A stretch of 64,000 nt of DNA from Candidatus Nomurabacteria bacterium (lineage in GTDB: Bacteria; Patescibacteriota; Saccharimonadia; Saccharimonadales; VXPC01): contig JACKGQ010000001.1 of assembly GCA_020631905.1 (NCBI GenBank), forward strand, positions 165,854 through 229,853. Reading direction: 5' to 3'. Each line of letters starts with the position of its first letter. The stretch's first letter is position 1. Below the pieces are notes generated by a model. That model was given only the letters and a program-made list of their open reading frames with translations, made no database searches and was not told where the DNA came from. The translations under genes and the position numbers were made by a program. This document shows, one piece after another, positions 62,002 to 62,774 of the stretch.

Positions 62002-62068
62002 AACAGGGCAATTATAACAGAAGTAATTAGATGTATCCTCTTTTGAAAGTAAAACATTAAATCTCATT

Positions 62069-62260
62069 CTTCTATTTTTGAATAGACCAAAAACAGAAGC
62101 AAAAAAGTCTTCTAGCCACTCCAGAACAAGAGGACTATCAACCCGAGCTTAGTAAAATCTGGTAGCCGCGGAACTCAGGCTAGTAAACTAGCCCTCAAAC
62201 AGTCCTCGCCACCATACTTTACTAACCACAGTTTGCTAATCTGTTCTGGAGAGATGCTGG
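62069..62260. repeat. L element copy C
   Basis: P1 as in copy A. P2 CTCCAGAAC/GTTCTGGAG, P2b TTAGTAAA/TTTACTAA, P3 GGTAGC/GCCACC (one A.C pair, which is G.U on the reverse strand), P4 GGCTAG-TAAA-CTAGCC. Loops CGCGGAACT, CAAACAGTCCTCG and TTGCTAATC. Confidence 0.75.
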
Positions 62261-62305
62261 ATTATTGTGACTGAGAGGTATTAGATTACGTGATAACAGG
62301 GGTAG

Positions 62306-62329
62306 AAAATGTTTCACGTGAAACATTTT
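62306..62329. repeat. Perfect 24-bp palindrome
   Basis: AAAATGTTTCAC|GTGAAACATTTT, centred on CACGTG, in the spacer between L copy C and T copy 4. Confidence 0.9.
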
Positions 62330-62425
62330 AACACACTCAAAATCGCTCTAATGCGTGAGTGTGCAGACATTTTCTATAACCACGTTTTTGTTTACGTATG
62401 AATTATAACATAAGCTTTTAGAAAT

Positions 62426-62485
62426 AACGAGAAAACCCCGAGCCCCTGAGAGGGCTCTAGGGCTCTCGATCAGAGGGTTACGGGG
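62426..62485 (-). terminator. T element copy 4 (diverged, structure retained)
   Basis: AACGAGAAAACCCCGAGCCCCTGAGAGGGCTCTAGGGCTCTCGATCAGAGGGTTACGGGG. It shares both ends with copies 1-3. The internal hairpin is changed to GAGCCC/GGGCTC. The U-tract is retained on the reverse strand. Confidence 0.65.
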
Positions 62486-62489
62486 CTAA

Positions 62490-62702
62490 TTAAGTTTGAG
62501 TGGTCGGGGGAGTTTTGATGCGCTTGTCGCCGCGATCCAGCCAGCACATCCGCTCGCCGCACGTGAGCGCCATGACGCTGAAACTGGGTAGGTACATGTA
62601 CCTCACGCCGAGGACGGCCACGTAAACGAGTACTTTTACCCACCAGGGGCCGTCGAAACTAGACGACAGTATGCTTGCCAACAAAATTGCCATAAAGGTC
62701 AT
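62490..62702 (-). CDS. Small orphan two-TM membrane protein (70 aa), cargo f
   Basis: AAGGAG RBS 6 nt before the ATG. Helices MAILLASILSSSF and WWVKVLVYVAVLGV. G+C is visibly above that of valS and tsaD. Confidence 0.55.
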   Translation of the reverse strand: MTFMAILLASILSSSFDGPWWVKVLVYVAVLGVRYMYLPSFSVMALTCGERMCWLDRGDKRIKTPPTTQT

Positions 62703-62774
62703 TGCAACTCCTTGTCTAAAGAACTAGCTCACTCGAACTCGCATTATTATATCATTATCTTAAGAATATGTCGA
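62703..62774 (-). promoter_or_regulatory. Promoter-like spacer of cargo f (GATATAAT -10, AAGGAG RBS)
   Basis: Fills the gap from the tsaD stop codon to the cargo f start exactly. Related to 55294-55398 (see that feature). Confidence 0.45.

Follow-up and report, generated by a model that had tools for sequence, protein, structure and literature searches.

The tsaD-valS spacer of a Saccharibacteria genome is probably a composite of an ancestral parS site and two independent insertions

The genes tsaD and valS of Candidatus Nomurabacteria bacterium (assembly GCA_020631905.1, contig JACKGQ010000001.1), a genome of the Saccharibacteria type, are separated by a gap of 773 nt, and the makeup of this gap is the subject of the present analysis. 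The gap lies near one end of a stretch of 64,000 nucleotides (positions 165,854 to 229,853 of the contig), which we call the window; coordinates are given on the plus strand of the window, and the features of the gap are read on its minus strand. In that direction, tsaD is followed by a predicted promoter, a ribosome-binding site, an open reading frame (ORF) of 70 codons (ORF70), a predicted intrinsic terminator (T4, one copy of a repeat that we call T), a short conserved segment, a palindrome, a structured repeat called L-C and the promoter of valS (Table 1). The original prediction, which was made by reading the sequence, treated this whole series as one mobile cassette. All of the features that it named were found where it had placed them, and the gap has no ORF of at least 60 aa besides the 70-aa one. 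A spacer between T4 and L-C does exist as described, but the length of 165 nt that had been given to it depends on the ends chosen for the two elements; from T4 (62418) to the L-C repeat (62286), the distance is 131 nt. Over positions 55432-62455, the window agrees at 100% identity with the independent short-read contig L083, and the sequence of this part is therefore sound and not an assembly artefact; this check ends at 62455, and the gap itself runs to 62774. Exact-protein look-ups for strain-level variants returned only contigs that were 100% identical to the window, or no match.

The order of the two genes is conserved. In all 12 related junctions that were recovered, valS directly follows tsaD, with gaps of between 26 and 1563 nt. 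The short gaps (26 nt in L007, 47 nt in L008, 52 nt in L090/L091, 68 nt in L005 and 70 nt in L006) are empty-site junctions of the kind that the original prediction had anticipated, and the longer ones measure 204 nt in L001, 209 nt in L093, 314 nt in L003, 357 nt in L004, 870 nt in L002 and 1563 nt in L082. Because the content of the gap differs from lineage to lineage, we regard the junction as an insertion hot spot. The closest species representatives are Saccharimonadales metagenome-assembled genomes with TsaD identities of 41-60%, and the nearest metagenomic relative (L081/L082) has a TsaD identity of 71%. A similar pattern extends to the neighbouring spacers: the syntenic block of tsaD, valS, an AAA_14/DUF4143 ATPase gene and an HTH-HAD gene is compact in the relatives, the valS-ATPase spacer being 0 nt in L082 (the genes overlap at their stop codons) versus 4.96 kb in the window and the spacer from the ATPase to the HTH-HAD gene 96 nt in L093 versus 768 nt in the window. 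All the spacers of this block are filled in the window lineage.

The palindrome had been reported as a perfect one of 24 bp, and it is present as such (AAAATGTTTCACGTGAAACATTTT, 62306-62329). Its core, TGTTTCACGTGAAACA, is a known sequence: a review (PMC7022226) gives TGTTNCACGTGAAACA and TGTTTCACGTGAAACA as chromosomal parS sites of Bacillus, Corynebacterium, Hyphomonas and others, and a full-text search of the literature with the palindrome core matched solely papers on ParB-parS chromosome segregation. The site is single copy in the 64-kb window, where by our own estimate about 3e-5 exact matches would be expected by chance, and it is origin-proximal, lying about 40 kb from dnaA, dnaN and recF (the longest contig of this genome has 770,081 bp). 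The core TTCA[C/T]GTGAA also occurs in the tsaD-valS gap of seven of the 12 relatives (L002, L003, L004 with one mismatch, L005, L006, L082 and L093), and in L005 and L006 it stands directly after the tsaD stop codon; it was not found in this gap in L001, L007, L008 or L090/L091. As relatives carry the core at the same junction, the palindrome is a piece of the ancestral chromosome and not cargo. Judged by its sequence, it is an ordinary canonical parS, already known biology, and would be expected to bind ParB. The site resembles chromosomal parS in its exact 16-bp consensus, palindromic form, intergenic and origin-proximal location and conserved orthologous position, without any difference at the level of sequence; the literature searched holds no published description of parS in Saccharibacteria. 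Phage and plasmid BLAST searches for copies of L-C and T elsewhere gave, as their sole matches, chance matches to this palindrome. On opposite strands of 62222-62401, short ORFs of 34 aa and 30 aa both start with MFHVKHF, which is the parS palindrome in translation; such ORFs are likely to give rise to spurious gene calls wherever parS occurs.

Between T4 and parS, the window has 88 nt in common with its closest relative, L082, at an ordinary divergence. This segment contains a TG-extended -10 (TGTTATAAT, 62402-62410), the motif AAACAAAAAC and a hairpin formed by CACACTCA and TGAGTGTG (62332-62363), and its AAACAAAA motif is also found in L002, L003 and L004. A conserved small RNA between T4 and parS was considered and rejected, since the five lineages compared share no conserved structure in this segment other than the parS palindrome itself.

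The L-C repeat, which lies between parS and the valS promoter, was rightly described as one of a set: nhmmer matches the copy in the gap to two other copies in the window with E values of 1e-54 to 1e-73. We refer to the modules in which T and L-C recur as M1 to M4, the gap being M4, and L-C is present in M1, M2 and M4. The three copies are 220-254 nt long, intergenic and without a conserved ORF. Perfect 7-bp direct repeats stand at the homology boundaries of the M4 and M1 copies (shuffle P of about 0.01 each), and none was seen at M2. In the gap, these repeats bracket L-C alone, and deletion of 62033-62286, that is, of L-C and one repeat, leaves 57 nt between the parS core and valS, as compared with 57 nt in L005 and 59 nt in L006. 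L-C was not found in the 12 related junctions or, with a covariance model (R1), in 17 related loci, and scans of viral contigs and of JGI metagenomes yielded no further copies of L-C or T. From this geometry, L-C appears to be a discrete insertion between parS and the valS promoter that is independent of the ORF70-T4 unit. Independent short-read contigs of the same strain (L096, L083 and L095, with ends at 52649, 55432 and 62455) break inside the M1 copy of L-C and inside T3, T4, T1 and T2, which suggests that further copies of both repeats exist elsewhere in the genome.

Table 1. Positions of the features of the tsaD-valS gap, its flanking genes and the related repeats in the window
Feature	Positions	Strand	Remarks
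tsaD coding sequence	62775..63950	-	Upstream flank of gap; 391-aa ORF; PF00814 TsaD; 100% identical to NCBI MCA9324870.1
Promoter (predicted)	62746..62774	-	-35 TCGACA, 17-nt spacer, TG-extended TATAAT; 11/12 consensus match; pattern match only
Ribosome-binding site AAGGAG	62708..62713	-	5 nt upstream of ORF70 ATG
ORF70	62490..62702	-	70 aa; two hydrophobic segments; conserved RYxYLPS motif; from ORF list and hydropathy
T4, predicted intrinsic terminator of ORF70	62418..62492	-	Stop codon, CCCCG, inner hairpin, CGGGG, UUUUCUCGUU
Conserved segment, 88 nt between T4 and parS	62330..62417	-	73% identity to L082 6929-7013
parS TGTTTCACGTGAAACA	62310..62325	.	Core of the 24-bp palindrome; 16/16 match to consensus
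Direct repeat ATCTAAT, upstream copy	62280..62286	-	7 bp; flanks L-C M4
L-C copy M4	62033..62279	-	247 nt; nhmmer extent 62029-62282; rod hairpin of ~135 nt, U-rich tract, two small 3' hairpins
Direct repeat ATCTAAT, downstream copy	62026..62032	-	7 bp; flanks L-C M4
valS promoter, extended -10 TGTTATAAT	62011..62019	-	9 nt before valS ATG
valS coding sequence	59461..62001	-	Downstream flank of gap; tblastn against 8 relatives aligned from residue 1
T3, terminator of 157-aa orphan ORF (55459..55932)	55391..55465	-	No L-C after
T2, terminator of ORF 54784..55293	54716..54790	-	
L-C copy M2	54498..54717	-	No clear direct repeat; confirmed in independent contig L095
T1, terminator of 98-aa ORF (52976..53272)	52908..52982	-	
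L-C copy M1	52636..52878	-	nhmmer 52626-52879; repeats ATATTAG at 52629-52635 and 52879-52885

The three L-C copies are about 64% identical across the aligned modules, and the region of the rod hairpin (within 62107-62265 in M4) alone is 75% identical. The rod is kept in all three; 90% of its cells are paired, and 24 of its 58 pairs change on both sides, a level that was reached in none of 500 shuffles and compares with 2-10 in slid controls. In every copy, the fold of the minus strand is the more stable one, by 15-19 kcal/mol, through 5-7 G-U pairs. This advantage points to selection on one single strand, which is co-directional with the cassette ORFs and with valS. The apical motifs CGAGGACUGU and AGUUCCGC and, 24 nt upstream, GAUUAGCAA are invariant among the copies, and the rod is followed by a U-rich tract and then by the two small hairpins, the last of which in M2 scores, on the plus strand (54504-54520), as a terminator of the convergent ATPase gene. 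When the whole window was scanned at gathering thresholds, no Rfam 15 family emerged for L-C, T or the spacer, and permissive thresholds gave generic hairpin noise only (E up to 10 near M4 and up to 5 near M1 and M2). A T-box leader, as might be read from the plus-strand motif TGGTAGCCGCGG, was rejected because the wrong strand folds, Rfam gives no match and none of the other copies precedes a gene. Readings of L-C as a 6S-like RNA, a retron, an IS200/605 guide RNA or a bridge RNA were rejected as well: there is no matching architecture, and no reverse transcriptase, TnpB or recombinase lies nearby.

On the other side of parS, the predicted promoter of the ORF70 unit begins right after the tsaD stop codon and includes the GATATAAT of the original prediction, which had also described the ORF as encoding two transmembrane segments. 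Hydropathy confirms two hydrophobic stretches, at about residues 1-16 and 19-45. A search of all cluster representatives found one homologue, P0126, of 66 aa, which is 38% identical from end to end (pairwise E 3e-14), is encoded between rpsT and holA in another lineage (L085-L089) and is again followed by a T-like hairpin, which ends in TCGGGGTTTTCTC. No Pfam or PHROG family was found for ORF70 or the other cargo ORFs, and no homologues were found for the M3 ORF or for the 136-aa ORF of L082 that is described below, both of which are orphans. ORF70 is, as far as sequence can tell, a real gene, and its promoter, coding region and T4 would together form a separate transcription unit. The T elements have the form expected of such a role. 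Their 17-mer, GGCTCGGGGTTTTCTCG, occurs four times in the window versus 0.19 times expected; each T folds, downstream of a stop codon, into a G+C-rich hairpin of -27 to -37 kcal/mol that is followed on the mRNA strand by UUUUCUCGUU, and a terminator scan flags all four copies as intrinsic terminators. The ORFs of M2, M3 and M4 each have their own promoter-like site, and M1 has only a weak match further upstream. The motif CGGGGTTTTCTC was seen, in the window and in all the fetched loci, only behind such T-terminated small ORFs. At the same junction in L082, there is a T that is 90% identical to T4, as against DNA identities of 79% for the flanking tsaD and 76% for valS. This T is preceded by a different ORF, for a 136-aa membrane protein that shares only a patch of 17 residues with ORF70, L-C is absent, and an extra gene for a 188-aa protein follows the unit. 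The recurrence of T behind unrelated ORFs, at another locus and in L082 suggests that the ORF-plus-T units are exchangeable accessory genes.

Our results make it likely that the tsaD-valS spacer is a composite of an ancestral parS and two independent insertions. The ancestral state, as kept in L005 and L006, would consist of the tsaD stop codon, parS, some 57 nt, the extended -10 and, 9 nt further on, the valS ATG. A first insertion, upstream of parS, would have brought in a promoter, a ribosome-binding site, a small membrane protein and a T-type terminator, and would be present in the window lineage and its closest relative; such units may settle as exchangeable genes in intergenic spacers. 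A second insertion, between parS and the valS promoter, would have been that of the 247-bp L-C, with duplication of the 7-bp target ATCTAAT. L-C itself would be under selection for a rod of about 135 nt and a U-rich tract on the minus strand, and may have spread as a non-autonomous element.

Several observations weigh against this composite. The relatives are distant, with a TsaD identity of at most 71%, and the boundaries of the ORF-T insertion cannot therefore be mapped to the nucleotide. The G+C content of ORF70 (0.55) is close to that of tsaD (0.53), so composition alone gives no sign of a foreign origin, and the T at this junction, which is common to L082, may be old and vertically inherited, the ORF alone having been replaced. 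The window ORFs that were scanned yielded no ParB domain. As for L-C, only three copies are available, from one genome, and that of M2 lacks a clear direct repeat; conserved terminal inverted repeats are lacking, with poorly conserved ends in M1, M2 and M4 and, in M4 alone, an imperfect complementarity of 8-9 nt between the termini; the window ORFs of at least 100 aa include none for a transposase, integrase or reverse transcriptase; and the 7-bp repeats, standing in AT-rich flanks, could be a coincidence. Several of these points also speak for an explanation in which L-C is immobile, its copies being trans-acting small-RNA or stable-RNA genes that arose by local duplication and its 7-mers being due to chance. 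The strong covariation, the strand-specific G-U pairs, a -10-like AATAAT or TATAT just 5' of the rod and the U-rich tract after it would also suit such genes. However, two of the three copies have perfect repeats exactly at their homology boundaries, M4 precisely splits an otherwise conserved 57-nt spacer, and each of the three copies sits in a different spacer of a block that relatives have in compact form. We therefore think an immobile L-C unlikely, though it is the strongest of the alternatives; it is in part compatible with the composite, because mobility and function as an RNA can go together.

With the spacer taken as a composite, we infer that L-C is a small non-autonomous mobile repeat. 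L-C is like the miniature inverted-repeat transposable elements (MITEs) and other palindromic repeats such as ERIC, Correia elements and RUP in being about 250 bp long, non-coding, multi-copy and exclusively intergenic, in its short, putative flanking duplications, in forming a long hairpin if transcribed and in its plausible effect on the termination or stability of neighbouring transcripts. It differs from them in that its long inverted repeat is internal, set in from the two ends by 14 nt and about 74 nt, and in that its ends are poorly conserved, its stems covary and its G-U pairs are strand specific. We know of no partner transposase for L-C. The covariation and the strand-specific G-U pairs suggest that selection has acted on a fold of the single strand and not on ends for the binding of a transposase, and as the copies share no terminal inverted repeats, we do not file L-C as a MITE. 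After insertion, its role is probably played at the level of RNA, with L-C standing between transcription units as a stable RNA or as a strong terminator or insulator. L-C is the modestly novel part of the gap, a previously undescribed variant on the theme of the small intergenic repeat. A bolder reading would make it a new structured-RNA mobile element of an ultra-small genome of the candidate phyla radiation, one with 7-bp target duplications and no terminal inverted repeats that moves through an RNA or single-strand intermediate, like a short interspersed nuclear element or a hairpin-guided element; separately or additionally, the T hairpin would mark an integrase-free exchange of cassettes of small orphan genes among Saccharibacteria. 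We consider this rather improbable.

The T elements raise the further question of whether they are recombination sites. If they were attC-like, the ORF-T units would be integron-like cassettes, and several of their properties are indeed shared with these: T is a conserved imperfect inverted repeat with conserved ends that starts right at the stop codon of unrelated small ORFs, the window and L082 have different ORFs before the same repeat at one site, and T is better conserved there than the DNA of either flanking gene. However, the core motifs RYYYAAC and GTTRRRY are absent from the six T elements that were aligned, each ORF would have its own promoter, and the repeat has every feature of a canonical intrinsic terminator on the mRNA strand. 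Moreover, no integrase domain was found among the window ORFs, and the T cassettes are scattered and form no array beside an attI. An attC-like role for T is thus very unlikely. Another likeness, given a composite spacer, is to the morons of Hendrix and colleagues, which are reportedly autonomous units of promoter, ORF and terminator between conserved prophage genes. The ORF-T units resemble these in their sigma-70-type promoter, single small ORF and factor-independent terminator, in their location between genes that are adjacent in relatives and in often being richer in G+C than their surroundings. They differ in residing among core genes of a bacterial chromosome rather than in a prophage and in sharing one conserved terminator family; such a family is, to our knowledge, not a described property of morons. 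The ORF-T units are ordinary in kind, with the shared terminator as their notable feature.

The claim that the whole gap is one cassette, inserted as a unit between tsaD and valS, has some features in its favour. In M1 and M2, L-C lies 0-35 nt downstream of T, so that the parts are often adjacent, and the gap of the window is far longer than those of many relatives. Yet parts of the supposed cassette have separate histories: the palindrome, a canonical parS, is found at this junction in relatives too, the 88 nt upstream of it are common to L082, L-C has 7-bp repeats of its own and its removal alone restores the ancestral spacing, and ORF-plus-T units without L-C are found in M3, in L082 at this very junction and in L085 at another locus. 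The original prediction held that relatives with the same ORF and spacer at ordinary divergence would speak against it, and we find such sharing for the spacer and the palindrome, whereas neither the ORF nor L-C shows it. The underlying observation is confirmed, and the one-cassette interpretation is partly supported: the hot spot at this junction is expanded and its empty sites are real, but what fills the gap is a mosaic. We see next to no likelihood that the gap was inserted as a unit.

It is equally hard to credit L-C as a cis-regulatory 5' leader of valS, of the T-box or riboswitch type: its strong structure and its position just before valS, on the coding strand, would suit such a role, but the copies of M1 and M2 point at the 3' ends of convergent genes and not at a gene downstream, the conserved -10 of valS is downstream of L-C, there is no match to a T-box or any other Rfam family, even at E values of up to 10, and L-C is missing from valS of the relatives compared. 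The same TGTTATAAT stands at the same 9-nt spacing before the valS ATG in L004 and L006. A -10 that ends so close to the start codon implies that the valS mRNA is leaderless or nearly so. The ATG at 62001 is consistent with the N termini of ValS of the relatives, for which Pfam domains were recorded.

The identification of parS takes away the most eye-catching cassette feature of the gap, and provides a landmark for studies of the origin region and of ParB in Saccharibacteria. The hot spot indicates that an epibiont genome of as little as 0.77 Mb still admits lineage-specific accessory units into the spacers of a conserved block, which bears on how reduced genomes gain small membrane proteins that might mediate contact with the host. 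In L-C, a structured repeat is matched by an exactly defined empty site. Should it prove to move, it would count among the rare mobile elements of this phylum, and it could find use as a natural module for termination or insulation. Current understanding is not overturned by any of these findings, whether on parS, on the hot spot or on L-C.

Some further observations concern the surroundings of the gap. TsaD has 391 aa in the window versus about 353 aa in most relatives, owing to an internal insertion of about 38 residues (62775-63950). The island that fills the valS-ATPase spacer (54498-59460, 4.96 kb) has a G+C content of 0.56-0.60 versus 0.46 for the window and contains two orphan ORFs that are followed by T (M2 and M3) and two further ORFs, of 102 aa and 778 aa; the 778-aa product has a TPM domain at its N terminus and a tail that is rich in Gly and Ser, with GGFSTGG-like repeats.

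At the other end of the window, about 13 kb (3700-16870) contain no frame of at least 160 codons in any of the reading frames, the longest being 158 codons (4797-5270), and 3-base periodicity is absent beyond about 4.5 kb. The independent contig L094 has intact polysaccharide-synthesis genes where the window has no long frames; over the overlap (7027-16870), the two sequences differ by approximately 3-6% mismatches and 7-11% indel columns per kb, versus 0-4 differences per kb from 17000 on. Positions 3700-16870 of the deposited assembly are an unpolished, error-rich artefact and not biology.

The genes typical of a replication origin, jag (R3H), yidC, rnpA, dnaA, dnaN and recF, are at 20.2-26.3 kb (20177-26292), with dnaA at 22493-23881 and oriC presumably in the spacer 21996-22492. 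The window also holds a type IV secretion cluster, in which five consecutive T4SS_pilin (PF18895) genes (42281-45455) adjoin VirB4/TraG-like and PrgI-like genes and a gene for a multi-domain cell-wall hydrolase of 1033 aa. Between the genes for tRNA-Arg and tRNA-Ser, an ORF of 185 aa without a Pfam family is bracketed by an inverted repeat of 27 nt that is 93% complementary (47718-47744 and 48268-48294).

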